Shown piece after piece: positions 6,687-48,497 of a DNA stretch of 64,000 nucleotides. The notes beneath the pieces are model-generated. The model made no database searches and was not told where the DNA came from. It was given only the letters and a program-made list of their open reading frames with translations. Position 1 is the first letter of the stretch, and each line of letters begins with the position of its first letter. The position numbers and the translations under genes are program-made. The DNA is taken from positions 14,245 to 78,244 of the forward strand of contig JAUCBJ010005549.1 of assembly GCA_032718475.1 (NCBI GenBank). Reading direction: 5' to 3'. The DNA is from Nemertoderma westbladi (taxonomy: Eukaryota; Animalia; Xenacoelomorpha).

Positions 6687-6764
6687 TACATAAGTTATAC
6701 ACAATAGAGAAATAGAACAATGCCTGAACAACAATGAAAATATCAACGTATTATTTTGTTGTAG

Positions 6765-24200: not shown

Positions 24201-25345
24201 TTGAGAGTCATCTCAGTGTCCTGTGGGATTCTCATAATTGTTTTAATTCGTTCCAAAAGATCGGGAGAGCAATAAGACCAGAACATTGCTAATTGTTCCT
24301 ATCTGGTGCGTTCGCGAAGTTTAACCACAGTTTCATAATTGGCCCAGGATGGTTCCCAACGTTTAAATGTTTTGTAGTCCACAGTATCCATTAAGGTGTC
24401 TGGGATTTTAGCAGTTGCTTTAACTGTATCTCGAGGATTTCTTACAGGGTTTATTGGATCCCCGTCTCTTGGAGTTCCATCAGTGCCTGAAGAAGAAGGA
24501 AGTCGAAGTGATTGCAGAAGAGACTTCATTTCTTCATCCCGGATTCGACTTTCCTGCTCCTGGTGCCTCCTGTCTTCTTCACGTTGTTGCAGCATGTGTG
24601 CAAACATCCTCTGCATCATAGATAGCGTATCCGAATCCTGTTCTACTGGATGTTGCCGGTAGGCTCCTCTTGAATCTTCCTTAGACATAGCTGTAATGTT
24701 ATCGTGGTGTTTTTGTATTGCCACTTTTAGCATACTACACATTCGCGCTGTTGACTGTTTAGAATCCCACTGCATGGACAAAACATCGAATGCCGCGTGG
24801 ATTTCCTCACGAGATAGCCGTTCTATCTCATCATTGGAGAGTTGGAGAGTCTCATCTAGCGTTCTCTCCATCATCAGTATAAGTTTACCGAACCGTAAGT
24901 GGCTTAGGCCTACTGTTTATGGATGTAGATAAATAGGCCTACTGGCATAGGCTACTAGGCTAGTCTGGCGGATTGGTCGGTAATTATGTATATCAACGTT
25001 CGCAAAGTTGGTACCGGTAGTGGAGAATCTGGTAGGTTCAGCAGTACGTTTTTACCGGTACCAGTATAGTGGTTATGTGAACAGCCCCCCTTATAGCAGG
25101 CGGTAGAGTATATGTAGATGATTTAAAATTAAAAGATCAGTAGAGTTCGAATATCTAAACACTGACTGCGCCATGCTGTGTTGTTGAACCATAGTTCATA
25201 AATAATAAGATAAGTAGTCTGACTGACAGACTGACTGATATATATATTCTCAACTTAGCTACCGGTATATATATAGATAGATTATTCCGTACCTATAAGT
25301 TACACATACAGACAGATAAATCCATGGCCTAATACATATACAACA
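21299..25345 (-). mobile_element. Ty3/Gypsy (Mag-like) element, gag-PR-RT-RNase H, integrase missing, with inverted LTR-derived termini
   Basis: gag 24874-23798, double zinc knuckle [10 protein letters not shown]...[14 protein letters not shown], protease DTGA, RT KVDAVHGYWQ/IVDD, RNase H TDAS/ELEALA/TDHRPL/ADALSR. 5' LTR 25345-25174 followed by PBS TGGCGCAGTC. 5-bp TSD CTAAC at 21294-21298 and 25346-25350. Confidence 0.93.
25161..25173 (-). promoter_or_regulatory. Primer binding site, probably tRNA-Ser
   Basis: Minus strand reads ...cacagCA|TGGCGCAGTCAGT, complementary to a tRNA 3' end GACTGCG-CCA as found in animal tRNA-Ser. Confidence 0.6.
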
Positions 25346-27796
25346 CTAACATGTTAACATCAACCCCAGCACCAAACATAACACTGGTGGGTGGGGGGGG
25401 GGGGGGGGGACGGGACAGGGTGACATTCCCCCATTGCAGTATCAGCAATACACTCAGCCAAGAACAAAAACCCCAAACCCCTCAGACCCAAATAAGTCGT
25501 GCAACATGGAGATATGGAGGGGACTGTTACCCCCGATGATATATCCAACGCAAGGAAAGTCGACGGGTCCGATGGGGGAACCGCACCCAACAGCAAGGGA
25601 GTCTGTATCACAACCATCGAGCGCGCTGGAAGTACAAGCGATGGGAATGGCACCACTCATCGACGCGCTAAAGACAAGGATCGAGCTACCGCCAGTGGAG
25701 CCGTTCAAATTCGATGGTAGTAAGCCGGAGGAATACATGCAATTCCGGCGTATGTACAGCAATGAAATACTAATGAAGAACTTGACACAGGCGGAGTGCC
25801 TTAAATACTTACAAGTCTACACAGGGGGGCCAGCATACGACATCGTGAGGCAATACCAAGGTATTGAAGGAGGATTCACGACTGCATGGCAAAGCCCTGG
25901 ACAGGGAATTCGGGCATCCTGCGAAGATCATCCGACAAACCTTAAGAGGAATAACATCAGGCGGACTACAGGATAACCCTGTCAGCATTAAGACCTTCGC
26001 GAATAAAGTCGAAAAGGTGCTGATTGTGTTAAAGACCCTAGATGCACCTTACGAACTTAACACATCGAATAACATCACTACTGTACAATAGCGCAGGCAC
26101 TACCGATCTGGCTGAGGAACAAGTGGAGAAAGATCGCCTTCTCCACCCAGGAGAAGAAAGATGAGGAGCCAGGGCTAGAGGAGATGTCGAACTTCCTTAA
26201 TTATGAAGCAGAATTGATTACAGACCCAGTCTACAGCGAGGAGAGTTTGGGTAAGGTGCCGAAGGCAGAATGCAGCCAATCTAAACCAGAACATAGTTCG
26301 GCGGATGCATTTCCAAGAGTTAGACAGTTGCTACTGCATGTGGCCATGCAGGGGACTTGTAGTCTATAAGCAGCTGGGAGTAGGGCCACACCGTGGCAGG
26401 GACAGAAGCAAAACAACAACACAAACAAATACAATCCCAATACCCCCAGCAGGCCGAGTCCAAATAACCAAAACACTAAACCGGTAGATATGAATCTACG
26501 TGCGATACAAGGTATGCTACGACCCCAGCTACAAATGTGAATTGCATAGAGATGGAACCCATAAGACCATGGACTGTAAGCATTGTCAGGCGTTACTCAA
26601 ACAAGTTCGCATAGCCTACGCTGATTAGAATGGACTATGTCATCGATGCGCGGTAGCAGGACACTGGAAGGATGAATGGCAGGAACCACTGATAGAATAC
26701 GACGAGACTGATGAGACTGGAGGCCAGAGGCATTCTGGAGGCATTCTCACACCATTTGGATGGACGCTCACTGGCCCAATTAGGATGAGGATACCGTTTG
26801 GTGTGTCCGAGACATCAGGGTGCATGCTGTCCGGTACTGTTGAGGACATAGAGGAGAAACCAGAGACGGGCGATGGGGAGGTCCCATATGGGAAGCGGCC
26901 CGAGGAAGGACACCCGGAGTCGGGGATGGGTATGGATCTGGAACCATGCATAGTGGAGTGTGGTGACAGGGTGGAGGATAAGTCCAGAGAAATACCACCA
27001 ATAGATGAGTGAGGAGAGGAAGCAACAGCAAGAGAGTGGGCGGAGGAGAATGGGTTCGACGCAGAGGACCTAGAGGCGATGGGATGGAACATAGATGTTC
27101 CGGGCGAGTATCGGTATGAGGATGGAGAAGAGTGGACGGCAAGACATCCGGAGAGATGTCCGTATCAGACGCCGGTCAGTTGAGAAGCATGCCGATGGGG
27201 ACAAGGTCGAGTAGGAGGACAGGGTGGAAGCGGAGAAAATGTGGGAAGATTAGACCAAGGGCAGAGAAGCCGATGATGAAACGTGACCAAGGAGGCAGGG
27301 AAGTTGGAGGAGGCTTGTTATACACACACATGGGGATGGCAGAGTGCGAAGGGGCATTAAATGGTAAGCCATTATGCGTACCGAAGGATGACCGGGGGTC
27401 ATCAGGGGCTTTACTGCCGGCGCACATATTGAGGGGGAGGCCAGCAGAGGTGGCAAATACCAGTGAGGATGACATGAAGGGCGGCATTCAACCGCCAAAT
27501 GACGACAAGATGGAGGGTGGCATTTTGCTGACAGGGGACCATGAGGAGACTAGTGAGATGACGAAAAGACCGGATTTAAGGGTGGAGGAGAAAGGAAGGT
27601 CAATCCCAAAAGAGTTGAAATTGACAAGGAGAGTGGGCCGAAGATTAAGAGGACCTACAGGGGCGCATTGGGAGAGTTGCCTGCTGGAAGAATCGCCCTT
27701 AGGTTGTTGAGTCGTCCAATAAGTTGGACTGAGGGGGGTGGGAATGTGGGCGAGACGCCCTTCCCACACACAAAATAAAAAAAAAATAAAAAATAA

Positions 27797-28312
27797 TAGA
27801 TAGATGGTAGATAGATGGTAGATAGTAGATAGAGATAGTGGATAGATAGATGGTAGATAGATGGTAGATAGTAGATAGAGATAGTGGATAAATAGATGGT
27901 AGATAGATGGTAGATAGAAGATAGTAGTAGTGTACATAGTACCGTATAACCTGTGGGTACTGAGGGCACCACGTGGGGAATTGAGGGGTATGTACGCATA
28001 CCATAGTAGTAGGGTACATAGTAGTGTAGAACCTGTGGGCACTGAGGGTGCCACATGAGGAATTGAGGGGTATGTACGCATACCATAGGAGTAGGGTACA
28101 TAGTACCGTAGTACCTGTGGGCACTGAGGGCGGCACGTGAGGAATTGAGGGGTATGTACGCATACCGGAGTAGTAGGGTACATAGTACCGTAGAACCTGT
28201 GGGCACTGAGGGCGCCATGTGAGGAATCGGGGGGTATGTACAGTACACATACCGGAGTAGTAGGGTACACAGTACCGTAGAACCTGTGGGCACTGAGGGC
28301 GCCACGTGAGGA
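27797..28312. repeat. Purine-rich (tagatgg/tagata)n microsatellite followed by an ~82-bp tandem repeat (~4.7 copies) inside LTR element A
   Basis: acctgtggg recurs at 27949, 28031, 28113, 28195 and 28282. Confidence 0.9.
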
Positions 28313-30016
28313 ACTGAGAAGGCAGATAGGATAATAGCACAGGCAGGGGGGGGAACATAAATAAATAAAATAAAATTAGGGGAATATTAGCACGAAGGAA
28401 AGAACAAGGTAGGAGGTAGGCCATCATTGATTTAAACCGTAGTCAAGTGCAACATTTTTCCAATTAGCTACTGGGATTGGGGACTAATTGACTAGAACAG
28501 CAGGACGAGACTTAGACTAACATGGTGCACACATGTGTGGGACCCGATAAGTGTGTGGAGAGTGAAAACGAAAATGGGGGAATGGGGGAAGTATGGGGAG
28601 GAGGTGTTGGCATGTGAGGGAGTGAAAGGAGTGCGATTAAAGTGTGGGGGGCAAGCACGGATGAGGATGAGTCCCAAGGGACTGGTGAGAGAGGAAGGGA
28701 CAGCAAGGTCCGTGAAGAAGATTTGAGGAAGGTTAGATAAAAATTGTGTGGAGAGAGAGGACAATGATCTCAAACAGAGACACCAGATACCTTGGTGCAA
28801 CATAGCTCGCGATTGGACCAAGGATGGGTAGTACCAACATACCCATGGGGGCCGGTCTGGAAAGCCGACCCCGAGATGAAAACACCACCCCACATCCAAT
28901 ATTAGATTGGATTCCAGCGGAATTGAAGCGCACTTGAGGTTGATGCTATCTTCTCACCGGGAAGATAGCGGGGGGGGGGGGGGGGGGGAGTGTAAGCGGA
29001 TTCAATTCCCTACACCACCCACCGAAAATGGGACCAGCATGAGGCTAGCATCAGGGAGTAACACCTACAGTGAGTGGCGAAGTGACAATTAGTATATAAG
29101 CCAATAGTGGGCAGGGAAGCACGTGGGGAAGGATAGTAAGGCATCCATTGGGTACCAAAGGCCACAGTAGCGTAGAGCTGAAACCAATATGTATCAATCA
29201 TATAGTTACTCAGATTACTGATTTACTGGTCAGTTCATTATTACATAGTTGCGGACCGGCATAGTTTTGACCGTCATTTCATATGTGCTGCTATCGTCAT
29301 TCATGCTATACTGATTATTGTTACTATACCTGTATACATCTGACTGTGCTATTATTTCTGAGATTATTAATACTGAGAAACAAATTCTGTTATTTTCCCC
29401 AACGGCCTTCGGCCAAAGATATTAGCTCAGCAGCCCAGCAGCCAAGTGACGCTTACAATCTTACCCGGTCGGGATCTGAGACTCGATCCCGTCACAATTT
29501 AAAATATACCAATGAAACAAAAATTAGAATCTATTCGATCGGAAAAGTCAAGGAGAAAAATGGTGTGTAAAACGATTCCTTATACAACATTATTTCCACT
29601 CTAAATATATGTATACTGCTATTTGTGTATATTTTTACTGTCACCTGACAATGAACCGTTTAATAGGCACATAGCCCTTACATGATTTCACCCACTTTCT
29701 CCCTTCCTTACAGCGTTTGGAACCTTTTCTACCAGCCAACTGAGTATAAAACCCTTACACTAGTTCGACCCCTCTTTCCATTCCTTACATGATTTCAACG
29801 TCCAATCAAATAATAGTTCATTAACCAATCCCAGGTGTTAATACAATAGGTGTTCCTAGTAGTGTAAGGATTGGGAATACGCGACCAGGTCCTTATAGCT
29901 TGCAATCTCACAGTACTGCTATATTCATACCTGTATATTTGAGTAGGCCTATATGGTAGTAAGTCCGGATTACTGCCATGGTATGTATGGAAAACATATA
30001 ATATCAAAATTATATT

Positions 30017-30207
30017 GACACAGTTCGGGTAGGGTGGGTTGACCTCAGGTGACTAGTGAAATGAATAACAACAGTTTTTAGAAGCTTTCTCCCAACAGGG
30101 CTTTCCATAATTACCTGAAGAAGCCCTGTTGGGAGAAAGCTTGTAATAACTGTTGTTATTCATTTCACTAGTCACCTGAGGTCAACCCACCCTACCCGAA
30201 CTGTGTC
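30017..30207. mobile_element. 87-bp-arm hairpin, probable Penelope-like element terminal repeat in inverted configuration
   Basis: 30017-30103 is a near-perfect reverse complement of 30121-30207, and the spacer/right arm carries a CTGAAGA...GAAA hammerhead-like core. Confidence 0.6.
30110..30147 (+). ncRNA. Candidate minimal type-I hammerhead ribozyme
   Basis: attac-CTGAAGA-a-gccc-tgtt-ggga-GAAA-gc-tt-gtaat: helix I ATTAC/GTAAT, helix II CCC/GGG, palindromic AGCT helix III (dimer-type), NUH = CUU. One G-A mismatch at the base of helix II. Confidence 0.5.
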
Positions 30208-30772
30208 CATATGACTACCAAGGTGACGAGAGCGCGAGAATTCCTCCTTAAATATCAGAATTATAGTGAACTATAAGTATAATAAGAGGTAACCTTCTGT
30301 ATCAGTTAAGCAGTACTGCAGTATATCAATTTAACACCAAAACCAAAATATAATGGGTATGGGGCGAGCCATATAATACAATAGCACCGCTATATGCGAA
30401 TACACAAATGAGTAATTCAATGCCTGTGAGACCCAATATTTTATTCATAATATTTTTCAATTTTTAACTTATCTACTTACAAGCTGTTAATAAGCATCGT
30501 ATCCGTACATTTAGCACTCTACTTATATTGCACTATACTATACTATTTAGCAATATACTTAATTCTTTATTTTTTGAATATTTTCTAGATATCAATAGAA
30601 ACGTTGTTATCTTCAGGTACCCTAAACAATATGAATACCAATACTTTCCTAAAATCAACATTAATCTTATGTATTCCTGACTATAGTTAAATATTCGAGA
30701 ATATTAATAATAATTATACTCATTCAACGCCTAGAATTACAAAATTAGGTTAAGGTTATAATTAGTTAGAGT

Positions 30773-31100: not shown

Positions 31101-31629
31101 TAGGTTGGAGGAAGCTTGGGAGTTTGTGTTTATCTTAAAAGAATCATTTAAGACATTGCAGTGGCTTTTAAACCAAGCCTGGAAAAGATTATGATTGTGA
31201 TTTCAAGATTATGTACTATGCTGCTGGTCCACTTCTTTTCTATCCTGTCAATCATCAAGTTGTATAGAATGGACTACACTCGGCCTAACATTAGCATAAT
31301 GTGCAGTTCAGAATGCAATAAATAAATCAGCGTGTTTCCTGAACTATCTTAATACGAGGTATGGAACTACAGTAACCATGGTACTAAACTTGTCACGCTC
31401 TTATAACACAAACACATACAGGTACACTTGCCATGGATTCGTTTCCATATTTCTGTATTAATTATTGATAACGCAAATTACTAGTGTGTGTATGGGATGC
31501 CCTTTAGTCCTTTCGTATATTAACGATACTATATGCAATTTGTGAGGCAATCATCACTTTACTCGATATACTGCCTGCAGTTACTGTTTAATACAAATTT
31601 ACTCCATACTATACACAAGATAGAGTACA

Positions 31630-31915
31630 ATGTGGTCTGCTTATGTAACTATTTACATTCTGGCAAATTTTGCTACATCAGTGTCATATTGTGGATTGTA
31701 TATCAACTCTTTCTGCACTAACCAGACTTCACTTGGTGTGTCTACCAAAGCATCATCATTGAATGAATGCAGCATTGATTGCGAACATAATAACCGCTGC
31801 TGGTCCTTCAACTTCACTGACGACAGATGCGAGATATTCGAAGAGGACTGTCTCGCAGACATGGCCAACTGGGATACTGAGGTTCTTGGGAACCGATGGA
31901 TAAGAAAGAAAAAAG
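31630..31915 (+). CDS. Exon 1 of a secreted lectin-like gene: signal peptide plus PAN/apple domain
   Basis: Hydrophobic N-terminus MWSAYVTIYILANFATSVS and PAN signature CSIDCEHNNRCWSFNFTDDRCEI. Donor AAG|gtaagt, phase 1. Confidence 0.8.
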
Positions 31916-32172
31916 GTAAGTTAGAATATTTTATGTTGTGAAAATAATTTCTATAGTGGACTCGACATTCTGCAGGATATTTAAAACAATACAATGTCTA
32001 CTATCTATGAAATATAAGAAATTCATGATCTTACAACAGTTCTATCATTGAAGTTAAGTTTACGAAGTAAGCGAGCTTAGCCAAATGGTTACGGACAGCT
32101 TTTTCAACCATTTGCTTGACGGGCGGTCGGACTGTCTGCCGGATTGTCTGACTGTCTGTGTAGTAAAGTTGA

Positions 32173-35100
32173 TGCCGTTATTCCCGACACCAAGGGGGAA
32201 AACGCCGATGCTGGAGGCGGAATTTTCAGACCACTTTATCCCGGCCAGTCACCGTATATTGGGAGTGGAGAAGGATATTACCTGAAATGCACAATTGCGG
32301 GTAGAGAAAAAGTTTCATTGGTTGGATATAATCTTTAATGTAACTTGACTCTGGTTGAACTCTGATTGAGAATAATTTGGGCTTCCCCACACCAATATAC
32401 CAAATATTCACAATAATACACAAATATAAATTCCTACAGTAAATTATTTAATTCCCCACTGTTCGCTTTCAGATTTTGACCTAACTAATGTTCCCCATTT
32501 TCCCTCGGTCCTAGTCCTGGTACCGTAGTGTCAGTGTCGGTCGATCCTTCGCATGTCCGTCCCACCCTTCCTGAACCGTGACGGGATCGGTCATCAGGAA
32601 AGCAGTACGGATTAGCTAGGGGTCTGTCGGTTCATCACAGGGTCCCAACCACCTAAGCTTTCCGAATCCTTTTCAGGCTCGTAATCGCGTCGGTAGCCAA
32701 GAACCTGCTCCGAATAGTCGGTAGGCCAGTAGAGTCCGGTACTCTGTCTTTCGACCCTGTTGCATGTCCGTCCCACCCTTCCCGAACGCTAAAGGGATTG
32801 GTCATCAGGAAAGCGGTACGGCTTAGCTAGGGGTCTGTCAGCCCGTTGTGAGTGCCAACTGTCGGAGCTTTCCGAGTCCTTCTCAGGCTCGTACTAATGC
32901 CAGTCGTGGAACCTACGCCAGGAAGTCAGTCCTCGTCGAACCCTTCCTTTCCGTCTGGTCAGTCGATCCTTCGCAAGTCCCCAATGCGAAGACTCCTCAA
33001 GAGTACCTTTCAGGCTCAGTCATAGCCAACATACCGGGAACCGCTTAGGATCTGTCAGTTCCCATCACAAGGGTTGTCTAGGCCTCGGAACAAGGACTGC
33101 CCTTAGCGGTTCCTGGCCATCAGCGGCGATTACGAGCCTGAAAAGGATTCGGAAAGCTTAGCTGGTTGCAACAGGGATTTGCGACGGGAACTGACAGATC
33201 CTAAGTGGTTCCCGGGTCATTGGTTACGACTGAGCCTGAAAGGGACTCGGGCAGAGTCTTCGCATTGGGGACTTGCGAAGGATCGACTGACCGGACGGAA
33301 AGGAAGGGTTCGACAAGGACTGACTTCCTGGCGTGGGTTCCACGACTGGCGTTAGTACGAGCCTGAAAGGGACTCGGAAAGCTCCGACAGTTGGGATTCA
33401 CAACGGGCCGACAGACCCCTAGCTAAGCCGTACCGCTTTCCTGATGACCGATCCCTTTAGGGTTCGGGAAGGGTGGGACGGACATGTGACAGGGTCGAAA
33501 GACAGAGGACTGGACTCTACTGGCCTACCGACTATTCGGAGCAGGTTCTCGGCTACCGACGCGATTACGAGCCTGAAAAGGATTCGGAAAGCTTAGGTGG
33601 TTGGGACCCTGCAATAAACCGACAGACCCCTAGCTAAGCCGTACCGCTTTCCTGATGACCGATCCCATCAAGGTTCGGGACGGACATGCGAAGAAACGAC
33701 CGACACTGACACTACGGTACCGGGACTAGGACCGAGGGAAAATGGGGAACATTAGTTAGGTCAAAATCTGAAAGTTAAGCGAACAGTGGGGTAATTAAAT
33801 TATTTACTGTAGGAATTTATATTTATGTATTATTGTGAATATTTGGTACATTGGTGTGGGGAAGCTCAAATTATTCTCAATCAGAGTTTAACCAGAGTCA
33901 AGTTACAATATAGATTATATCCAACCAATGAAACTTTTTCTCTACCCGCAATTCTGCATCTCAGGTAATATCCTTCGCCACTCCCAATATCCAGTGACTG
34001 GCCGGAATAAAGTGGTCTGAAAATTGGAATAAATGATGAAATGTGGAATAAATGATGAAATGTGGTAATAAATGATGAAGTGTGAAAGAAATAATGAAAT
34101 GTAAAATGAATAAACTATAGAAATGAAAAAAGACAAAAAAAGTATAAAATGTAGAATGGAAAAAGAATCTAAAAAAGAAGCGGACATAAAAAGTCAAAAA
34201 ACTGGTTGGATAATAATGTATAGCTATAGTAACTGTAAATACTGAATGTAGTAACAATAAGATGATAGATGCCTATATAGCAATAACATTAACTATATTA
34301 AAAATAACTATTCTGCAGTCGCTATAGAATCAGACTTTCTGGATTTATAATTAACTGAATTAATTTTTAACAGACGTAATTTACAATTTGGACCCGAATC
34401 GCCAGATTCTTGGTGAATTAAGTAATACAATTGATTTATTGGAGTATACACAACCTGGATCTCCTAGTTTTGATGTGAAATGGAACAACCTATTGAGCGA
34501 GAATGTGCGAGTCATTCGTTTCTCCAGGAGGGAGGTACCGGATTCCCGTAACCTGCAGACGCTCCAGTTCACCGACGCAAGTACGAGCCTGAAAAGGACT
34601 CAGAACGCTGAGGTAACCGGAGGAGGAGAGTTGTCGTTCTGGGATACGTTTTGGCAAAGCATTTACAAATCCCGGTGCCTAATTTACGACAACGAGGGCA
34701 ATGCGACGCCGACTCCAAAGGCGGTTACAATGGCGCGATGTCAGAGTTTCATTGACGACAAGAGTACATATCTCGCACACTGGGAAACCTGGCGGAATGT
34801 ACGGCGATGGTGCGAGAGGAATGTATGACAGTCATCCAAAACCGAGACGACTATAAAGAGAAATACGGGACGAAGGAGTACGGTCGGTCGCTAATCGTTG
34901 TCCTCGGAACCCTAGACGGATTGGTACTGATATGTTGAATCTTCCCGACACCCCAACAGGAATTACAGACAGCCGGGGCAATCTGGCTACTACCATCGGC
35001 GATCCAACAGGTATTGTCAGATATAAGTCAGATATAAAGGCGGATCTCCGGAACAACTACACCAATGCTCCGTCCGGAAGGAATTGTAGAGAGGACATTA

Positions 35101-38100
35101 GTGCGATCAGCCACTTCATCGACAACCAAACCCTGCTGGCCTGGTTACTGGCCACGGACTTTATGGGCGGGTTTAAAGAGGTGAGACAGACTAAATCCGG
35201 TATCGGCTACCTAGCAGTGCAAAACGGCGGTTTAGATTTTAAACCACAGAAATTCCCGGACTACAATAAAATCTACGGCGTGCATCCGGATTTAGCGATA
35301 CAGCATGAGCGGGAGAACTGTTGGAGGGACGTAGAGAGGAAGTGGATGATCCACCAATGCTGGTATGATCCGGATCGACGAAACTACATCTACGTCACGA
35401 TGGAATCGTACACGGTTGCCAAGTTTATCTGTAAAACGCTCGATAAACTCATTAGCGCGGCCCCCAAGTGCTTCATAGATTACGAATGGAACGAGGTGAT
35501 CGACCACGCGTTTAAGGCAGTGCAGAATATCCCACCGGGAGATACCAAGACCCTAGACTTAATCGAATCCTGGGACCTGCACGGACCATTCGATATCCCC
35601 ACGATTACCGATCTCCTTGGCGCAGAGGAACCTATAGTATCGTCGGAAGGAGAGGAGTTATGGAAACACGAAGGCATTCTGCTATCCACACCAAAACGTC
35701 AACTCGAACCGGAAATCGCCTACGGATCAGCCACTAAACGTATCGCCGCGACTGAGCCTGCGACGGAATCTGGCGTAACCACTCCACTTGACTCCGGTAG
35801 TCCGGCGAGAGAGCTAGTTCCCACCCTCGCGCTTAGTGACTTCGACAATGCATGCAGGAGGTTATCTCCTTTCCCATTTCCTGGAGGAGAGCATTGGTCC
35901 ACGGAAACTCCAAGTACCAGTACACTGCGACCCGATCGGCTATCCAAGTTACGAAGGGTCCTAGTATACCGCCAACCCCTGGAGACCTTCTTGGGATTCC
36001 TTCGGCGAATGTTCCGGCACCCCCGACAGATCCCGATCTTCTTAGGTCGGGAAATGCAATTCGACGTTTGCAGTAGCTGCGGTTCAGATCAGTGTCCTCG
36101 AGGAAACAAACAACGAGTTACCGAACCGTGTTTCCAAATCCTTGGGATACTCTATTGTCCATACTGCGCTACCCCGGGCCATGACGTAGCGGTTTGCCCG
36201 ACACTTTATAGCATCTGTAAAACGGGCGGTTTCCGTGGGCATACAGCGCGCCCTCGATGCAACATTAAATGTCCTACCAAGGACGTTACTGCTGCCGGGA
36301 ACATGGTTATGTTCGAGACGTACGCCAATGCACACATAAAGACCAGAGCGCGATTGAGTGCCCGAAACGTCGCACAGGAGATGGCGTGCGGATATTTCTC
36401 GTTCCCCGAATGCCTCCATACGGTAAAGACCTTACCTTTCCAATATGTGGATTTATTACTTAGCAGCGCTAATCTATTCGGCCCCTTCGAAGCGATCAGA
36501 CGTCTATACTCGTATACGGAAGCGTTTGGAGACGGAGAATGGTTCCAGGCGGCTCGAACCACCGAGTTGGAGAGGAGAACAGATCTCATCTCGATACCTC
36601 CCCGAGGAAGGGCTGCCAGGAGGCAGGCAGGGGCGATGCTCACGTCGGCCAACGATGCTCCTCTACCCGCACTGGGGATAGATGAAAGTCGACGGGCGAA
36701 GAAAAGGAAAGCATATCAAAGCAGGAGATAGAAGACCAGGACATTTTATAGACACTTATTCGAACATTGATTTTTATACGTATGTAAACTGACTCTAGGA
36801 CAAATTAATCAAGACTATGCAATAGTAAAAAATTGTGTTTTTTATATAGGGAAATGACCTACGCAAACTCGAACTACAGATAGACCTCACGAAGGTCATT
36901 TGGGGGGACTGCTCGCGATTTCAATTTATCATAAAGCGAGATACATATTTTTTGGATTTATATTTTATGAATGTGCCAATATCAGTAGTGGGTGCGGGAA
37001 CATTAAATTTGGGCACATTCGATAGACTGGGGGCGATTTATGGGCGAATCTTGGGGCGACTTACGGGGCGCGGGAATCATATCAGATATGTAAGGGCCAG
37101 GGGTGGGAGGCAAAATCAAGCAATACTCTCAGCTGTCAGGGTTGCCTGATAGTTACTGAGGCCTAGACAACCTCCTTCTACTTCGGTAGTTGGTAACCCA
37201 CTAGGCCTGGGGACAAGGACTGCCCTTAGCGGTTCCTGGCCATCAGCGGCGATTACGAGCCTGAAAAGGATTCGGAAAGCTTAGCTGGTTGCGCCAGGGA
37301 TTTGCGACGGGAACTGACAGATCCTAAGCGGTTCCCGGTACGTTGGCTACGACTGAGCCTGAAAGGGACTCGGGCGGAGTCTTCGCATTGGGGACTTGCG
37401 AAGGATCGACTGACCGGACGGAAAGGAAGGGTTCGATGAGGACTGACTTCCTGGGGTGGGTTCCACGACTGGCGTTAGTACGAGCCTGAAAGGGACTCGG
37501 AAAGCTTCGACAGTTGGGACTCATAACGGGCCAACAGACCCCTAGCTAAGCCGTACCGCTTTCCTGATGAGCGATCCCTTTATGGTTCGGGAAGGGTGGG
37601 ACGGACATGCGACAGGGTCGAAAGACAGAGGATCGGACTCTACTGGCCTACCGACTATTCGGAGCAGGTTCTCGGCTACCGACGCAATTACGAGCCTGAA
37701 AAGGATTCGGAAAGCTTAGGTGGTTGGGACCCTGCGATAAACCGACAGACCCCTAGCTAAGCCGTACCGCTTTCCTGATGACCGATCCCATCAGGGTTCG
37801 GGAAGGGTGGGACGGACATGCGAAGGATCGACCGACACTGACACTACGGTACCGGGACTAGGACCGAGGGAAAATGGGGAACATTAGTTAGGTCAAAATC
37901 TGAAAGCGAACAGTGGGTAATTAAATAATTTACTGTAGCAATTTATATTTGTTTATTATTGTGAATATTTGGTATATTGGTGTGGGGAAAGCCCAAATTA
38001 TTCTCAATCAGAGTTCAACCAGAGTCAAGTTACATTAAAGATTATATCCAACCAATGAAACTTTTTCTCTACCCGCAATTCTGCATCTCAGGTAATATTC

Positions 38101-38204
38101 TTCTCCACTCCCAATATCCGGTGACTGGCCGGATACCATAAAGTGGTTTGAAAATTCCGCCTCCAGCATCGGCGTTTTCCCCCTTGGTGTCGGGAATAAC
38201 GGCA
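32173..38204 (+). mobile_element. Unclassified 6-kb element: inverted repeat copy, direct copy, orphan ORF, direct copy
   Basis: Repeat R at 32173-33070 (inverted), 33090-34025 and 37213-38204 (direct). The outer copies form ~900-bp TIRs starting tgccgttattcccgacac. GC-rich relative to the host intron. No clear TSD. Confidence 0.8.
34374..36731 (+). CDS. Orphan protein with Cys/His zinc-knuckle cluster (ORFs 34388-34828 and 34932-36731, probably one frameshifted gene)
   Basis: 599-aa open frame containing CSSCGSDQC...CPYCATPGHDVAVCPTLYSICKTGGFRGH...C and a basic C-terminus RRAKKRK. Preceded by a 146-aa ORF in another frame and acceptor taatttttaacag| at 34373. No RT, DDE, GIY-YIG or tyrosine recombinase motif recognised. 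Confidence 0.7.
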
Positions 38205-38638
38205 ACAAAAGTTATGATTTGGTTAATATAAGTCAGTATAATAATAAAACAAAATAAATGACAATGAAAATCACAATAACAATGAAACACCTTAATAAAC
38301 AAACTGCCCCTAATATTCCCCAAAATCGGGAAAAAATAGTTTTTTTCTCTGTAAAATATTGTCAACCCGTATGGTTTGAATTGATTTTACTTTGATTAGA
38401 TTAACATTCATGGTTCCTTGGTCATTTTTTGGCCATTCATTTTTTACATAATTTAACTTAATCTATATGATGGATCAATAGGGTTCAATTGATTTTACTT
38501 TGTTTATAAAGAAAAATCAAAAATACAAAATTTTTTGATGGAATTTATTAAATTTTATAGAAAAGCTTCAAAAAAATTAAAACTTTTTTGAGAAGTTTTT
38601 TTTCTCATGCAACAAATATTTATTTAATTTCATTCTAG

Positions 38639-38926
38639 TTAATTGGGCTGGTTTGTACAACTCACCGTGTCGTATTGGCGACATAAATCTCGGAGATGTT
38701 TCACTAATGGAACAGAAAGACATCCTCACTTTTACAGAATGCATGTCCAGATGTGGGGCGACAAATTGTATGGGCGTCGCCTGGGCCTGGTCTGAGGGAG
38801 ATCTACCTGCCACATTATGTTGGTTTGACCTTCAAACATATTCGAACACAAAACTAAGGGGCATAGTTTCAACACATAGAGACAATATAGCGTTCTTTGA
38901 GAAGAAAGGAAATATTGACTTACAAT
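38639..38926 (+). CDS. Exon 2, second PAN-like domain
   Basis: Acceptor atttcattctag|, phase 1. Encodes NWAGLYNSPC...TFTECMSRCGATNCMGVAW...LCWF. Donor T|gttagt at 38927, phase 1. Confidence 0.75.
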
Positions 38927-39019
38927 GTTAGTTATGTTGGGGGCGACACAACTGGGCAACTGTTCGAGTTCCAGATGTGCATAGTGTGATATGTATATGT
39001 GTATATGATCTTCGTTTAT

Positions 39020-39210
39020 TAGTAGTATTTGTGGTATTTTGCAGCTCCTGGTAGTTGTAGATTCTTTGCTTTCTGTATAAACCCTCTGATCTCTCGACTG
39101 AAACGATTTGCGGATGATGGTTTCATAAAAGCTCTTCACTTTCTTCTTCTGATGGATGACTCAGCTTTGTTAGCCACTACTCGTGCTCGAGCTTTAGAGA
39201 AATTGAACAT
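39020..39210 (+). mobile_element. Small degraded LINE RT fragment in intron
   Basis: LHFLLLMDDSALLATTRARALEKL resembles the RT xxDD core of non-LTR elements. Confidence 0.55.
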
Positions 39211-39394
39211 TAATTTTATGAAGAATTTAACATGTCCAAGACGAAGTTCGTGGTAGTACTCATGAGTAAACTATGTTATTTTAATTCTTAAATAGCTGCA
39301 TATGTATTGAAATTTTTGTTTATAGTTAGGCTTATTTGGAATTTATGATAAGATGTACCAGAAATCCTGCAACTAACTAACATATATATTTCAG

Positions 39395-40155
39395 GCATTT
39401 CTAAATGGCAGAAGTTAGATGGTTCACTTACATGGGTGAGTGCTGGCCAGGCTGGAGTTTGGGGTGTGGACTCGACTGGTCGTATTTTCTACAGAGAAGG
39501 GACATATGGATCCTGCAGTACTGGAACAAAATGGGTCATTATCGATGGTGGACTCGCCAATATTGCTGTTGGAAGCAATATTGTTTGGGGCGTTAATCTC
39601 CACTATCAGATTTTCTATCGAAGAGGAATCAGTCCTCAAAACCCAGCAGGTAATAATTGGCCAATGATTGCTGGTGGACTTAGCCGGATAACAGTAGATT
39701 CAACCAGTAATGGAGTCTGGGGTACCATCTATAACAAGGTTTACCAGAGAGTGGGTATAACTACCTCGACACCATCTGGAACATCTTGGTATGAAATCAT
39801 TGGCGCGAGCATGGCTGACATCAGCTTCGGAGCAGCAGGCCTGTGGGGTATCAACTTAGGATATGCTCCCTACTACATGCAAGGCACATTTGGTTCAAAT
39901 AACAATGTTGGTAGCTTTACAGGATGGGCAGCTGCAGATTGGCTAACAATTAGTTCTGGAGCAAATGGTGTTTTATGGGCAACAAAGACAAACCATGAAA
40001 TTTACACAGCCACAGTGGAAGAAGGGTATATAAACCCTGTTTGGGAACGTGTAGATGGGGAATTGGAGCAAGTGAGCGTCAGTGATTGGAATGGTGCAGT
40101 TTGGGGAGTGGATAGTGCTTCAAAAATATGGTTCAAAAATGGAGTATGTGACTAA
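39395..40155 (+). CDS. Terminal exon, tectonin/tachylectin-1 (fish-egg-lectin-like) beta-propeller
   Basis: Acceptor tatatttcag|, phase 1, in frame with ORF 39436-40155. Repeated WxxIxGxLxxIxVG...VWGVN/D blades (about six), then a stop. Confidence 0.92.
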
Positions 40156-40188: not shown

Positions 40189-40535
40189 TATGGTGGCCCT
40201 GAGCGGCCAAAAGTTTGTTTTTTGTAATCTTTTTTTTTTGTTCACCCGACTTTTGTAAACTCGTTCGAACGACTTTACAAAACTCGAGAAAACAAATCTA
40301 ATTGGCTGGAGTGGTTTCTATACCAACAAACATCCAATCAAGTTTGTTTCCCCGACTTTTGCAAACTCGTTCGAACGACTTTGCAAAACTCAGGAAAACA
40401 AAAGTTTGTTCTTTGTAATCTTTTTTTTTTGTTCACCCGACTTTTGTAAACTCGTTCGAACGAGTTTACAAAAGTCGGGTGAACAAAAAAAAAAGATTAC
40501 AAAAAACAAACTTTTGGCCGCTCAGGGCCACCATA
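40189..40535. mobile_element. Palindromic MITE with TATGG termini and 6-bp TSD (IS3EU-like) just after the lectin stop codon
   Basis: tatggtggccctgagcggccaaaagtttg...caaacttttggccgctcagggccaccata, with GTAATG duplicated at 40183-40188 and 40536-40541. Confidence 0.85.
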
Positions 40536-41447: not shown

Positions 41448-42069
41448 ACAATATAGCGCACCCTAAAGGAGTGTTAGCTTATCCAATTCCGCTAACATGA
41501 ACCCACAGAGTGAGCCATAAAGCAATATTGGGAGCACGAGGTTGATTACCAATCAACCTCGTGTCAGCCCAGTAAACGGGGACAATAGGCCCCAAAGGAG
41601 ACACACACAATAAGGGTCAGGGGCCAAACCCCTAACCGAGAGAGAACACAGGGAGTGAAGGGAAACACTCCAAAGGGTGCCAACAGGGATATCAACCAAT
41701 CAGAGGGGGGCAAGGCATCGATTGAGTAGCAATAAGGCCACCGTGCAATATAACCAGTTACCAGTAATCATACCGGTCAGTTATTCAGTTTACTCAATCA
41801 GATCAGTAGGGTGGAACGGGGACTTCTGTCACCGTCCGCTACCGCCATTATATATTACCTATTGTGTCATACTATATTATATCAACTGTCAGACTATTAT
41901 ACCTTTATACATATTACCCAACATCAGAACTCTTTTACCTTTCACACACGGCGGGGACGCGTGGGCAGAAAACCCAAACGGATAAACCGGGATCCGTAGA
42001 TCCCGTCACAGTGACAGAACTAGATCCGCCCAGCTGCCCTGACAGTGATAGACTGACACCAAAGGCGAG

Positions 42070-45000
42070 ATGAGTCGAGAGAAAGGAACGACACCGCCGC
42101 GGACCCCGGACGACGATCTAACGATCCGCGAGGCCACGGCGAGACGATACGAACCCACGACGCCGGTCGATGCTACGCCGACCACGTCGACGCAGGTTGA
42201 CGCCACGTCGATAACGAGCAACACGGCGAACCAAGGTGTGGGGGGTCGTCTACCAGGAGAGAGCGAGTCGAGTAGAGGAGACGAGTCGGGAGGAGAAGAG
42301 AAAGACGAGTCGACGCGGAGCGAGGGTCGACGAACCGATGTCGCCGGTCCGCCACAGGCCGAGGACGACGAACGGTCCACCGGAACGGCGACGGTGGGGC
42401 CGTCGGTACGACGTCGGACCCGGAGAGACAGAGGAGAGGTCGGCGACGAGGACGTCGGGGTTTCTGATCGACTTCGACGGGCCTACAACGCGACCCGGGA
42501 ACTACTAAAGGAGGCCAAGGAGGGGGCGAGAATAGACGAGGTCAGGATGACAAAGGGACTAGGTGAGTCGGACAGATACTTTGATCACCTAGTGTGTTCT
42601 GGGCAGAGAGAACTAGCAGAGTTGAGGGCGTGGGGAGTTGCCTTCGAACTGTTTAAACTGTGGGAATGTGGGGGTATGGAACCTAGTGTAGTGTACATAG
42701 GGCCATACTTAGTCGATGCCAGGGAAGTTAAGTTAGTGGGTTGGAAGAGACCTGGGGAGGGCGAATCCGAGGTTAACTCCGAGGATTCGGTCTCGTCGGT
42801 CGGAGGAAGTTCCGGGAGGCGGGGGAAAGTTAGTGGGACGGAGGGGCGGCGGGAGTCCGTCGCAACCGATAAGTCTGCTACATCCTCCGCAAAAGAAAGA
42901 AGGGTGCGAGAGAGTGAACGCGTGGCGTATAAATTAGAAAAGGTTGCGACAGAGCAGAATGAGTTAGAGTGGCAATTGAGAGAGGAAACCGCATTCTCAG
43001 AGAAGGTAGGAGGCTTGGAGAGGGAGTGTAGAGAGAAGGCCGAGGAGTATAGAGAGAGGGCCAAGGAGTGTAGAGAGCTAGAGATGGGTGTAGAGAGCGA
43101 GCAGTTTGAGATGCTTGCGAGAGGGGCAGAGTTGACCGAGCAGAATATGCGAGAGAAGGGGATAAAGGATGAGCGCAGGCGGGATGATTTGCGTGCTCAG
43201 CTAGGGAGGCTTGCGCAATATCAAGCCAAACTTAAACGGCGCCGACTAGAACTGGCGCGGTTGGAAATGTCAGAGAGTGAGACCCCACTTACAAGCACCG
43301 GGCGAGAGAACCAGAACTGGTGTAGCCGTACGGGCGGGGGGGGTAGTAGTAGTACGTTAGAGACAGTTAATGTTAATAGTACCGTAGTAGATAACCATAA
43401 TCCCTTTATTACAGGAAATAATATTTTACCGGGTAGTAGTAATTTAAATTTAAATACAAATATCCTAAATAATAATTTCAATTCAAACCCGCAAAATAAT
43501 TCGAATAATAATTTAAGTTTAGAGAATAGTAGTGATCTAAGTAATTTAAATAATTTAAATAATAATCTCGTTTCAAATTCTAATAATTTAATTGATTTAA
43601 CAAATAATATTGGGAATGGTGCTATTAATATGAGCGTGTCGGACGTACATAACCCGGCAGACGGTGGCCTGGTAGGCCACGTAGTTAGTAGGCAGGAAGT
43701 GGCAGGGTTGAGCCAACCCGACGGCGGCCTGGTAGGCCACGTAGTTGGTAGGCAGGAGGTAGCGGGGTTGAGCCAACCCAAGGTGGGCCTGATGGGCCAC
43801 GCAGTAGTAGAGAGAGAGGCAGGGGTGAATAGACCCAGCCGTAGTAGAGACAGTGCGTCGACTAGAGAGGGGTGTAGAGACGAAGTAAGAGATATTGAAG
43901 TTAGATGTGGCGGGTGGGGGGGGGCTACGGGCGCCCCACCACATAAGATTAGTGGCGAGAGAGGGGGGGCAGAGAATGCCCCACAAGAGGGGTATAGAAG
44001 TGTAGTAAGAAATAGTGAAGTTAGAAGTGGCGGGTGGGGGGGGGCTGCGGGCACCCCACCGCGAGAGATTAGTAGAGAGAGAGGGGGGGCAGGGAGTGTC
44101 CCACAGCCGTCAGCGGATAATGCGAGGGCCGAAATAGGTAAACCGCAACAACCGGCGACGGAGAGTAATAGGGGGATTGCGAGTATCCCCAGCGGCGTGC
44201 GATCGAGCAGAGAGAAGCAGGTTGACGTCGCGAGAGGGCAGACGAAGCGTCGAGCCCGACCAGAAGAGGGAAGAAGAACAGTGGAGTTTAACCGGGAGGT
44301 CGACGAGAGACCTCACGAGCCGGAATACTACACAGAAAAGAGAAGAAGAGAAGATAGTAGAAGAAGTGTCGCCACGAACGATAGCAGTGCGAGGACGGAT
44401 AACGGACCGTCGATAGTAGAGATGGAGTCAGGGAGCCAGTGGGGTCGAACTTCGGGAGATTGCCGTCGCCCCGGAGAAACGCACCGCACGCCAGGAAGGG
44501 GGTACAGGACGTACCAATACGAAGAAGAGAACAGGAGAGGGGATCGAGGGGAAACTTCCCGACGGGATATAGCTGCCGATCGAGAGTGCAGTAGTCGCGG
44601 GGAGATTCGAGATTCGCGAAGAATAAACTTCGGTTCGGAAGGGCACATGCAGACTGCAGGACATACTGTAGGCCTTACTGCACATACTATTATAGGCCAT
44701 GCTGAGAGAGATAGAGTAGGCGATGGGGTAGCGCGAACGACGGGATTAAACCCGGAAGTCGCGGAGTACATACCGGTAGGTAGGCAAGAGGTAGGTAGGC
44801 CTGTATCGGTACAGCAGCATGACTATAATAATACACAGGGACATAACATATATCCAGGGGAGGGGGGAGTTATTGGAGATAGACGTATGGGCCCCAATGT
44901 ATTAACATCAACCCCAGTACCAAACAAACCGGCTGGGGGGGGACAGGGTGACATTCCCCCATCACAATATCGACAATATACCCCGATAGGAGCGAGAATA

Positions 45001-45780
45001 TCGAACTCCCTGGACGAGAGCAGGTCGTGCGGACAGTCACCACCACACGCGGCCATACAGGGGACTGCTAGTCCACAGTTAGGTGGTAGCAGGGCCACAC
45101 CGTGGCAGGGACAGAAAGAAAATAACACCAAAAATAAACACAATCCCAATATACCCAGTAGGCCGAGTCTAGACAACCAAAACATTAAATCGGTACATAT
45201 AAACCTAAGCGCGATACGTGAAGGACTATACAGGAAACGCTATAATCCAGGATTCCAATGTCAATTACATCGGGACGGAACCCATAAGACCAGGAGTTGC
45301 AAGTACTGGCAAGCGTTGCCCAAACGAGATCGTGTAGCCTACACAGACGCAAACGGACTATGTCATTGATGTGTGGTAAAAGGACACAGATCCGGAGAGT
45401 GTTGGAAAGGGAGACGATGTGAAAGGACTATGAGCAAACATAAGGGAGTCGGGAAAGTGGAAGGAGGCGTGTTGCATACACACGCAGGACGGACACAGTG
45501 CGAGGGGGCATTGCACGGGCAGACACCGCGTATACCGAGGGACGAGCGGGGGTCGTCGAGGGCCCTAATGCCAGCGCACATACGAAGGGGGAGGCCAGTA
45601 AAGGTGGCACCGAAGAGAGTGTGGCGAAGAGCTAGAGGACGTATAGGAGGGCAGCAGGAGAGTGCCTACCGGAAGAAGGGGCACGTGAGAGTTTTTAGTC
45701 GTCCAAAGTTTTGGACTGAGGGGGGTGGGAATGAGGGCGAGACGCCCTTCCCACGCACAAAATATAAAATAATTATTTAA
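42070..45780 (+). CDS. Gag-derived low-complexity protein (1099 aa to TGA at 45367; same frame continues to 45780)
   Basis: Coiled-coil segment, Asn-rich segment and terminal zinc knuckles CQLHRDGTHKTRSC and LCH*CVVKGHRSGEC. The stop corresponds to CGA in element A (tgtcatcgatgc). Confidence 0.75.
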
Positions 45781-45829
45781 TTAAAATTAAGAAAATAATT
45801 AAATAATAGAGTAGGTAGAAGCTAGGTAG

Positions 45830-47470: not shown

Positions 47471-48497
47471 TATGATAGCACAGGGGTAACATTAGAGATT
47501 AAAGCCTTAGGTAGTGACAAGAGAGTGGAGAGGTAATAGTGCGGAGTGCGAAGAGAGCGTGGGCGCAATTCAAGTGTGGGGGAGGAGAAGTGAGAGGAAG
47601 AGTGTGGGACGAGGAGGTCCGGGGGTATGCGAGAGTTGGAGTAGAGTGGTGAGAGTGTTGGGGAAACAAAAATTGTGTGAGAGAAGCGCACGATCGGCCC
47701 GACATGAGACGCCAGAGGGTAGTGACATCATACCCATAGGGAGCGGCCTGGAAAGCCGACTCCGAAAAAATATACCCACCCCACACCCGATGCTAGATCG
47801 GGATCCAGCGGAATTGTAGCGCACTTGAGTTGGATGCTATCTTCTTACCGGGAAGATAGCATGGGGGGGAGTGTTAGCTTATCCAATTCCGCTAACATGA
47901 ACCCACAGAGTGAGCCATAAAGCAATATTGGGAGCACGAGGTTGATTACCAATCAACCTCGTGTCAGCCCAGTAAACGGGGACAATAGGCCCCAAAGGAG
48001 ACACACACAATAAGGGTCAGGGGCCAAACCCCTAACCGAGAGAGAACACAGGGAGTGAAGGGAAACACTCCAAAGGGTGCCAACAGGGATATCAACCAAT
48101 CAGAGGGGGGCAAGGCATCGATTGAGTAGCAATAAGGCCACCGTGCAATATAACCAGTTACCAGTAATCATACCGGTCAGTTATTCAGTTTACTCAATCA
48201 GATCAGTAGGGTGGAACGGGGACTTCTGTCACCGTCCGCTACCGCCATTATATATTACCTATTGTGTCATACTATATTATATCAACTGTCAGACTATTAT
48301 ACCTTTATACATATTACCCAACATCAGAACTCTTTTACCTTTCACACACGGCGGGGACGCGTGGGCAGAAAACCCAAACGGATAAACCGGGATCCGTAGA
48401 TCCCGTCACAAGGAGGACCCAGCAACATAGCGCCTCCAGATCTTACGGTCAGCCATACACAGTGCCGGGGAACCCAGCAAAAAGGCGCCCCAGATCT

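Follow-up and report, generated by a model that had tools for sequence, protein, structure and literature searches.

Intron 1 of a PAN/tectonin gene of the xenacoelomorph Nemertoderma westbladi contains a 6-kb element that we consider, at somewhat better than even probability, to be a decayed Penelope-like unit lacking a reverse transcriptase (RT), which carries its own exonuclease-knuckle gene and was likely mobilised in trans by a Penelope-type enzyme. Gene loss is the norm among non-autonomous retroelements. The element lies in a stretch of 64,000 nucleotides of contig JAUCBJ010005549.1, here called the window, to which all coordinates refer.

Layout of the element and its repeat

The features are as follows, with the evidence for each in brackets.

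31630-31915, 38639-38926 and 39395-40155, plus strand: host exons (PAN_1 and Tectonin matches)
31916..38638, plus strand: host intron 1 of the PAN/tectonin gene, containing the element (contig joint, Pfam)
32169..33086, minus strand: copy A, inverted terminal repeat (repeat comparison)
33072..33086, minus strand: 15-nt junction piece (exact reverse complement of 37158-37172)
33078..34025, plus strand: copy B, upstream direct repeat, pseudo-LTR-like (repeat comparison)
34026..34387, plus strand: AT-rich leader, part of the family (high contig cover)
34388..36731, plus strand: broken single gene of ~777 codons (relatives' alignment, contig variants)
34571..34614, plus strand: extra GAAA-capped hairpin module, located in the 5' portion of the gene (repeat comparison, folding)
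34640..35520, plus strand: predicted DEDDy 3'-5' exonuclease domain, in three frames (relatives' profile alignment)
36069..36458, plus strand: Cys/His-rich region (relatives' alignment)
36732..37200, plus strand: 3' untranslated region of the unit (sequence, contig cover)
37159..37208, plus strand: predicted stem-loop closed by an 8-bp inverted repeat (folding, repeat alignment)
37201..38208, plus strand: copy C, downstream direct repeat (repeat comparison, RNA folding)

The original prediction placed the element in intron 1 of a PAN-tectonin gene, and this is supported both by a single contig of run X5 with a GT..AG joint (31913->38637, cut +2) and by the domain matches of the flanking exons. 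It also described three copies of a repeat, R, in the order inverted, direct, open reading frame, direct, which we found again with coordinates that agree within ~12 nt (A inverted 32169-33070, B direct 33078-34025, C direct 37201-38208). The copies are 4-6% apart, the mismatches in pairwise comparison of ungapped columns being 54/841 for A/B, 47/902 for A/C and 40/942 for B/C; the private substitutions (31 in A, 22 in B and 13 in C) are uneven for one event off one template. Copy C consists of a GC-rich 5' 660 nt of repeated hairpins and an AT-rich 3' part that has an AC-rich stretch at its end. Copy A, read on the minus strand, passes from the equivalent of 37158-37172 across a ~129-nt jump to the equivalent of 37302-38208. 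With regard to the 30-40-nt tail of Penelope-like insertions, A and C run ~52 nt past B; contigs with loose ends at 34025 (8, 6 and 5) and at 38210 (3), together with a 6-nt microhomology, suggest that the missing end of B is probably a deletion private to the window copy, between two AAAATT words. The longest candidate for a target site duplication (TSD), the 6-bp AAAGTT (left 32165..32170, plus strand; right 38208-38213), is weak, being a single 6-mer found by scanning offsets, and no empty allele was present among the listed joints of the sequencing contigs.

At the head-to-head junction the 15-nt piece is, as had been described, an exact reverse complement of 37158-37172 with its AGGCCT palindrome, where the first 8-9 nt of copy B overlap with it. 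The proposal that it is a template-switch scar is supported, in the broader form of a scar left by template switching or annealing. Copies A and B both start at the arms of the predicted stem-loop 37159-37208 (z -2.4; 5 of 200 shuffles fold equally well).

The folding of R is strand-specific (z -5.8 on the plus strand and +0.2 on the minus strand), and its hairpins include four with a GAAA-capped core and two with a k-turn-like pattern. A loop-E-like pattern (AGUA or AUUA / GAA) occurs 3 times against 0.02 in shuffles and a k-turn-like pattern once against 0.06, although the patterns were written post hoc and the modules are copies of one another, so that the excess over shuffles is description only. 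Covariation in the hairpins of R was no better than in the control, and Rfam gave no match at its gathering score, with two irrelevant matches at E<=5. Searches for a hammerhead returned 18 weak rows with a 2-bp stem II when all orders of its three parts were allowed at loose settings, and none at stricter settings with seven core variants. Hairpin ribozyme loop B, group II intron domain V, SECIS and C/D boxes were considered by eye as possible resemblances and dropped. A scan for bacterial promoters did no better than chance and has no relevance to this animal DNA.

A repeated family and its predicted exonuclease-knuckle gene

The element belongs to a repeated family that is represented in contigs from two studies, with 2624, 1821 and 1841 matching contigs in runs X1-X3. 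Summed depth, which is not copy number, reaches hundreds to thousands inside the element, compared with ~40-130 in adjacent flank bins. Contig cover is unbroken from the stop codon into C, and only 1-3% of the X1-X3 contigs continue into unlike sequence, though these contigs are short and there are more loose ends (645) beyond those listed. An internal-deletion joint, 34873->36723, is found in X2 and X3, and deletion derivatives are apparently commoner than the gene core.

The earlier statement that no RT, GIY-YIG, DDE or tyrosine recombinase motif is present holds: Pfam matched none of these, and no transposase, in the two main frames of the window copy, in which the exonuclease-knuckle gene leaves no room for an RT. 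Of 39 other window frames scanned, none matched GIY-YIG and three matched RT, these looking by eye like LINE and gypsy types.

The enclosed frame of 624 codons had been reported as an orphan gene. It is only the 3' part of a gene that starts at 34388, ~470 nt further upstream, spans three frames and fills 2.3 kb of the 3.2-kb interval from B to C; nor is it an orphan, as relatives and profiles reveal a broken gene for a predicted DEDDy exonuclease with CCHC knuckles. The window copy has four lesions (start codon at 34388, frameshift at 34782-34784, stop at 34936 and an 11-nt tandem duplication at 35016-35037), three of which are open in other copies seen as contigs, and we infer the same for the fourth. 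In other copies all listed depth reads ATG at 34388, ~99% of depth has C at 34936, and an additional G stands at 34784. Among the differences listed, 11 of 14 are synonymous around the ExoI candidate (34651-34777), but the long frame has 16 non-synonymous changes out of 18. These counts cover listed entries only (46 used, with several hundred more existing); the excess in the long frame is as would be expected from private decay of the window copy. The coding region is intronless and has a CpG observed/expected ratio of 1.14, with 1.0 in R and 0.6-0.7 in the flanks. The AT-rich leader has a 19-bp minisatellite at 34009-34121. A putative 5' intron, with its donor at 33965 and running to 34373, would join an ATG of R in frame, but in the main variant shown its acceptor AG is missing, and at 34388 the other copies already possess an ATG.

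In remote relatives of the gene product a DEDDy 3'-5' exonuclease domain of EXD2/WRN/Nibbler type precedes CCHC zinc knuckles; the window frames align to both parts. The knuckle region is common to five of seven phmmer matches, as well as to P0014; the other two, P0001 and P0007, are repetitive proteins and were discarded as spurious. The relatives are 24-36% identical, belong to no curated family and form clusters of 1-3 members. A profile search with A1 returned P0003 and P0014 alone, and loci of the relatives were found neither in metagenome contigs nor in viral contigs, a DNA motif search included. The N-terminal domain of the relatives matches EXD2 by HMM (E 2e-4), Foldseek (E 6e-5) and VIA-align (Z 9.2, rmsd 10.1, 114 aligned), and by ESM features it scores 0.94 to PF01612, with 25 of 30 matches. 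Aligned to the relatives' exonuclease profile, the X-linked read-through of the window scores 17.4 bits, against 4.7 for the best of 1000 shuffles. An RNase H-like exonuclease fold is thus predicted for the relatives, one of which was modelled with low confidence (pLDDT 51), and the window frames are tied to the relatives by alignment; in type the nuclease resembles EXD2/WRN (DEDDy) and not TREX/ERI1.

By eye the window contains D-x-E at 34688-34696, G-x-N-x-x-x-D near 35076-35096 and Y-x-x-x-E, which we take to be candidates for ExoI, ExoII and ExoIII, respectively. The ExoIII Glu is found in P0003, P0005 and the window, and the profile alignment stops short of the ExoI candidate, its ExoII Asp being out of register by two columns. 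In the Cys/His-rich region a single canonical CX2CX4HX4C knuckle is flanked by two degenerate ones, with a conserved helical extension; the knuckle profile matches PDB 7c45 (E 0.006), and the fold model of the region was too poor to use (pLDDT 36.6). Searched with the long frame of the window, Pfam gave a zinc-ribbon at E 0.6 as its sole match, ESM Atlas only sub-0.9 CCHC/DUF8363 leads, and a word-index search none of 6011 candidates.

DEDDy genes are known from rotifer Terminons, in which such ORFs lie beside the Athena RT, and from rotifer LTR elements (PMC5408684, PMC6431247; these two, PMC3846280, PMC7797062 and PMC8557442 are cited from excerpts throughout). Like Terminons/Athena and Juno/Vesta, the window element has a retroelement-borne DEDDy gene related to RNase D, Mut-7 and WRN. 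However, those elements encode their own RT, Terminons are telomeric and have hammerheads, and for two families the excerpts describe DEED and a Cys-His-Cys motif rather than CCHC knuckles (PMC5408684, PMC6431247), whereas the window gene stands alone, is intronic, and has knuckles at its C terminus and Y-x3-E as ExoIII. What retroelement-borne DEDDy genes do is described as untested in the excerpt of PMC5408684. The host proteins EXD2, WRN exonuclease, Nibbler/Mut-7, EXD1, Egalitarian and TbRND (comparison structures PDB 6k17, 2e6l, 7jw2, 5fiq and 7c45) share the DEDDy fold in the N-terminal domain, TbRND having a C-terminal zinc-finger domain as well (PMC7797062). They are single-copy genes and 10-20% identical to the window family in the aligned part. 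The window family sits in a mobile unit and differs from them in ~60 residues inserted after the ExoI candidate.

Relation to Penelope-like insertions and alternative explanations

The general scheme of Penelope-like elements (PLEs) is published (PMC8557442), and its partial tandem (pLTR) with an adjacent, inverted, 5'-truncated copy is found in the element. The layout and the short head-to-head overlap, both as published, thus back the original comparison with Penelope-like insertions. In Adineta vaga, Pen2a_Av has two direct pLTRs and, with a 15-bp overlap, a shorter inverted one; an RT-less NRPS insertion is framed by Pen3a pLTRs (PMC3846280). The window element resembles these in its direct repeats with a shorter inverted one overlapping, in the palindrome near the 5' end of the repeat and, in the case of the NRPS insertion, in RT-less cargo between direct repeats. 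The NRPS cargo, however, is a one-off intron-containing host gene with ~200-bp pLTRs and a proven 8-bp TSD (PMC3846280), whereas the window element is one of a repeated family with ~1-kb hairpin-array repeats, its own gene and a candidate TSD; at ~1 kb, R greatly exceeds the pLTRs of the rotifer examples in length (193-218 bp). Naiad/Chlamys PLEs, including MRC1 and Chlamys-2_cBra, are alike in having a pLTR with an inverted copy, non-autonomous members and one family with a zinc-knuckle ORF, and in being without a canonical hammerhead, which is absent from the pLTRs of Naiads and most Chlamys (PMC8557442). In the excerpt of that report, no protein-coding cargo is given for the non-autonomous members, no exonuclease appears, and the Chlamys-2_cBra knuckle ORF lies upstream of the RT ORF, unlike the arrangement in the window.

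Terminons and Chlamys-2_cBra bear on an alternative in which the family is an autonomous, multi-ORF PLE, with exonuclease-knuckle as an accessory ORF and an RT that the window copy lost or never had. The DEDDy ORFs beside the Athena RT (PMC5408684, PMC6431247), the upstream knuckle ORF of Chlamys-2_cBra (PMC8557442) and the joint 34873->36723 in X2 and X3 all speak for this; the unbroken cover from stop codon to C, and the 1-3% of contigs entering unlike sequence, argue weakly against it, and we regard it as unlikely though a serious contender. It is improbable that a host RNase D/EXD-type gene family was passively amplified between PLE terminal repeats under host-level selection, as with the rotifer NRPS. 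Capture of host genes by pLTRs is published (PMC3846280), and host proteins with exonuclease and zinc finger exist (TbRND, PMC7797062; the PDB 7c45 knuckle match), but the low identity of the relatives and their small, uncurated clusters are unlike conserved host genes, the coding region is intronless with R-like CpG content, and a hairpin module of R is located inside it.

We find it quite improbable that the element derives from a DNA transposon (Mutator, Foldback or Kolobok-like) with A and C as very long terminal inverted repeats and B as an internal duplication. A and C do form 0.9-kb inverted ends with almost identical end points, a DEDDh nuclease is known from KolobokD (PMC9587614), and deletion derivatives apparently outnumber the gene core; yet there is no transposase in the window copy, the head-to-head junction of A and B draws on sequence lying immediately upstream of C, only one strand of R is structured, and the nuclease resembles the EXD2/WRN rather than the TREX/ERI1 type. 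A non-autonomous LTR or DIRS-type retroelement, in which B and C are LTRs, the DEDDy gene corresponds to ORF3 of Juno/Vesta (PMC5408684) and an inversion came later, would account for two ~1-kb direct repeats around a gene with a gag-type knuckle. It is very improbable and largely refuted already: TG...CA ends are not common to B and C, by eye no primer-binding site follows B and no polypurine tract precedes C, ARAGORN found no tRNA in the window, and there is neither an internal complementary region (ICR) complementary to both outer ends nor a split-direct-repeat order (definition in PMC8969392), only the 15-nt piece being complementary, to one internal end, with no tyrosine recombinase. Finally, an assembly or library fold-back artefact is hardly credible, even with the A/B junction unbridged by any contig among the joints listed (15 of 43), since R copies that diverge by 4-6% are not expected of a fold-back, and copy A has its private substitutions, 52 nt absent from B and a piece located 4 kb away.

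Proposed mechanism and its implications

For the decayed, RT-less Penelope-like unit, the absence of an RT from the copy and its Penelope-like ends imply that it was likely moved by the reverse transcriptase of another element, in line with the earlier suggestion of a non-autonomous retroelement mobilised in trans. The suggestion of a new class was not borne out; the element is better seen as a variant, because RT-less pLTR-framed cargo and DEDDy genes on retroelements are already known (PMC3846280, PMC5408684).

A PLE protein has been reported to nick and extend both strands, starting inside the RNA in an AC-rich stem-loop (PMC11167929). We propose that an RNA spanning more than one unit (R-body-R) would be bound through structured R, that both target strands would be nicked, and that two cDNAs would share a starting point in the AC-rich 3' end of R. 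The first cDNA would yield C, the body and B; the second would consist of R alone and yield A, with one internal jump. Both would halt at stem-loop 37159-37208 and anneal via its 8-nt self-complementary arms, giving the head-to-head junction. The protein may bind the RNA of the element via its knuckles and trim or protect 3' ends of RNA or cDNA, a role that would explain a passenger gene kept under purifying selection.

A bolder reading, which we hold only tentatively and at well below even probability, is a split two-component Penelope-like system, in which an RT-less satellite has its own exonuclease-zinc-knuckle gene under purifying selection and a 1-kb protein-binding RNA-hairpin array in place of the hammerhead, and would belong to a broader class of eukaryotic satellites, so far undescribed, that act as helpers or modulate silencing and are recognisable in other organisms by the same protein family. 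In the literature covered, which excluded Repbase, Dfam, subscription papers and supplements, we found no RT-less PLE-framed exonuclease-knuckle family.

If an RT-less unit does carry a selected nuclease gene, that gene would be of benefit to the unit or to its partner, perhaps through the trimming of RNA or cDNA ends or through interference with small-RNA silencing, and so small a unit would be a simpler test case for DEDDy function than a 40-kb Terminon. The junction fits a two-primer model of the inverted pLTR, a still unexplained step in the Penelope cycle, and elements of this kind would escape pipelines that classify PLEs by their RT.

Repeat layout and insertion site

The element is framed by three copies of a terminal repeat of ~1 kb, R, in the inverted, direct and direct arrangement of the original prediction, and repeat finding and self-BLAST place them as follows:

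32169-33070, inverted, R copy A
33078-34025, direct, R copy B
37201-38208, direct, R copy C

The predicted 15-nt junction piece is likewise present, 33072-33086 being the exact reverse complement of 37158-37172, and therefore minus-strand A begins at the equivalent of 37158, from which ~129 nt are skipped before it runs on to the common end. The start of copy B corresponds to 37201. The starting points of A and B form the two arms of a predicted stem-loop, closed by an inverted repeat of 8 bp, through which the two copies overlap head to head. The pairwise differences (A/B 54 of 841 columns, A/C 47 of 902, B/C 40 of 942) and the private substitutions among the 841 shared columns (31 in A, 22 in B, 13 in C) show that A did not arise from B by a copying error. 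At the 3' end A and C are 52 nt longer than B, resembling a Penelope tail. We consider a private deletion in B likelier, because other copies run past 34025 with the 52-nt sequence and past 38210 with sequence resembling that downstream of B, and because a 6-nt word lies on both sides of the gap.

On the gene's strand, folding of R's GC-rich 660 nt is far better than that of shuffles (z -5.8, 0 of 20 shuffles); the opposite strand has no excess (z +0.2). The window contains a 17-nt core 12 times (0.02 expected), always within the element and once inside the gene. This core folds into a GAAA-capped hairpin in which 96% of cells are paired; changes in it are one-sided only, and covariation does not beat the shuffle control. 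Internal loops of the R hairpins resemble loop-E and k-turn motifs, patterns recognised post hoc. Rfam and motif scans, with the parts in any order, gave no convincing hammerhead.

The location in the first intron of a PAN/tectonin gene is also borne out, by a GT..AG joint (31913 to 38637) in one contig of sequencing run X5 and by Pfam matches of the flanking exons to PAN_1 and Tectonin. The sole TSD candidate is a 6-mer. One contig of run X2 tracks the left flank up to 32164 and then diverges, near the element's left end, and no empty-site joint was seen among 15 of 43 contig joints examined. The host gene (31630-40155, plus strand) has a hydrophobic N-terminus and, besides its PAN domain and tectonin propeller, a second Cys-rich exon. 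One contig over 38309-39598 counts 51 differences and as many gaps, which suggests a divergent allele or a paralog. Flanking the host gene are probable MITEs (30012-30212, 40189-40535), namely a near-perfect hairpin of 92 bp and a set of nested palindromes, 59-108 bp long. A young LTR element (41472-48410) has identical LTRs (543-nt exact repeat 41468-42010 / 47868-48410, TG...CA inside), an apparent 5-bp TSD (AGGAG) and a frame of 1105 codons (42052-45369) without a Pfam match. The inner frames scanned gave no pol match, and the family may be gag-only. At ~20200-29000 an older relative is split by a gypsy element, and the window holds several minisatellite arrays with units of 21-82 bp. Further features are:

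10523-11620, 18484-20325 and 21739-24916, a pair of LINE-like RT fragments and a gypsy-like element with a frameshift

The enclosed gene and its relatives

The gene between the repeats (34388..36731, plus strand) had been taken for an orphan, a view that no longer holds. Its 3' part, a 624-codon frame, gave nothing useful from Pfam, a word-index search or ESM Atlas; exhaustive phmmer returned seven matches, of which two repetitive proteins were discarded and five with E from 5e-8 to 1e-4 (P0002-P0006) have the Cys/His region in common with it, and a search from P0003 added P0014. These relatives are either unnamed or hypothetical, fall into clusters of 1-3 members and match no Pfam family at cut-off. 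The exonuclease domain is matched too, as tblastn of P0003 hits two different window frames in order, and an X-linked read-through of the window reaches 17.4 bits with the relatives' profile, where the highest of 1000 shuffles attains 4.7.

The relatives' N-terminal domain is predicted to be a DEDDy exonuclease by profile, structure model and ESM routes. A four-sequence profile matches EXD2 (E 2e-4) and the WRN exonuclease (E 0.017); the structure model is modest (pLDDT 51), and with it Foldseek finds EXD2 (E 6e-5), all eight matches at E<=0.001 being EXD2 chains, and VIA-align to EXD2 gives Z 9.2 and rmsd 10.1 over 114 aligned; ESM features match PF01612 clusters at 0.94 (25 of 30 matches). 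In the predicted exonuclease the ExoIII residue is Glu. The profile alignment stops short of the ExoI candidate (D-x-E at 34688-34696), which is followed by a ~60-residue insertion. The knuckle profile finds its counterparts in LIN28 and in nucleocapsid knuckles (E 2e-5 at best). This unnamed family is marked out by its three Cys/His clusters together with a helical extension that is conserved; the exonuclease is present in P0003, P0005 and P0014, absent in P0004 and P0006, and degenerate in P0002, which has the knuckle block twice.

The breaks in the gene are particular to the window copy. In other copies the ATG at 34388 is found in all listed contig depth, 34936 is C, with no stop, in ~99% of depth, and one more G stands at 34784, as read from loose ends in runs X2 and X3 and one-gap contigs in X1 and X2. 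The third frame change falls at an 11-nt tandem duplication, which we infer to be private to the window copy; divergent contigs stop beside it at 35009-35010, and a zero-difference contig of depth 20 crosses it in X1 and X2. An intact family gene would be ~777 codons. Among 46 contig differences scored, the best-supported ones only, 11 of 14 around the ExoI candidate are synonymous and 16 of 18 in the long frame are non-synonymous, a pattern consistent with a family gene under selection and a window copy that is decaying neutrally.

A repeated family in the sequencing contigs

The element belongs to a repeated family. The evidence is sequencing-run contigs, part of the stretch being found in three of six listed runs, from two studies; X1 and X3 are a single sample, and one run may be the source of the window sequence. 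Over 31200-39600, 2624 contigs aligned from X1, 1821 from X2 and 1841 from X3. Summed depth in X1, which does not equal copy number, is ~46-133 in flank bins (except the first, another repeat), 170-4000 in the gene and ~1100-9700 in R, and the step is nonetheless clear at both element ends. Depth in the leader and 3' UTR bins far exceeds that in the gene core, suggesting an abundance of gene-less derivatives, and a joint from 34873 to 36723 in X2 and X3 marks an internally deleted derivative without most of the gene. Separately, in X5, from which the spliced host joints come, one contig jumps back from 37617 to 37212, 406 nt inside R with 25 other letters between; this implies a ~431-nt period, near R's internal 435-nt period, and may reflect an R relative that is tandem or circular.

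Relation to Penelope-like elements

The element lies outside autonomous Penelope-like elements (PLEs), because RT and EN were looked for and are absent from this copy, the lack of RT having been predicted. That the family has RT in cis in other copies we regard as unlikely. In the rest of the window the only RTs met are LINE- and gypsy-like (39 other frames examined, of 92 of at least 100 aa). By analogy, the element appears to function like a non-autonomous PLE: the same layout is described in Pen2a_Av and an RT-less NRPS insertion framed by pLTRs, the partial-tandem PLE terminal repeats (PMC3846280), and in the general PLE scheme (PMC8557442, PMC8969392). DEDDy genes are also carried by rotifer LTR elements and Terminons (PMC5408684, PMC6431247, PMC5718144), KolobokD has a DEDDh gene (PMC9587614), unlike the predicted DEDDy type here, and retrozymes are non-coding PLE dependants (bioRxiv 10.64898/2026.07.22.740005). 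Literature searches, with Repbase, Dfam and supplements outside their scope, brought up no stand-alone exonuclease-knuckle unit in PLE repeats.

We propose that two cDNAs would be primed off opposite strands, halt at the 37159-37208 stem and anneal by its arms, with RT supplied from elsewhere than the element copy. Purified PLE protein nicks both strands and extends them, beginning within its RNA at an AC-rich stem-loop (PMC11167929); A and C share an AC-rich stretch as their end. Since A, B and C have diverged unevenly, more than one template may have been used. TbRND joins an exonuclease and a zinc finger and acts on RNA (PMC7797062). Our guess from the protein's own domains is that it might bind RNA and trim ends, or interfere with silencing.
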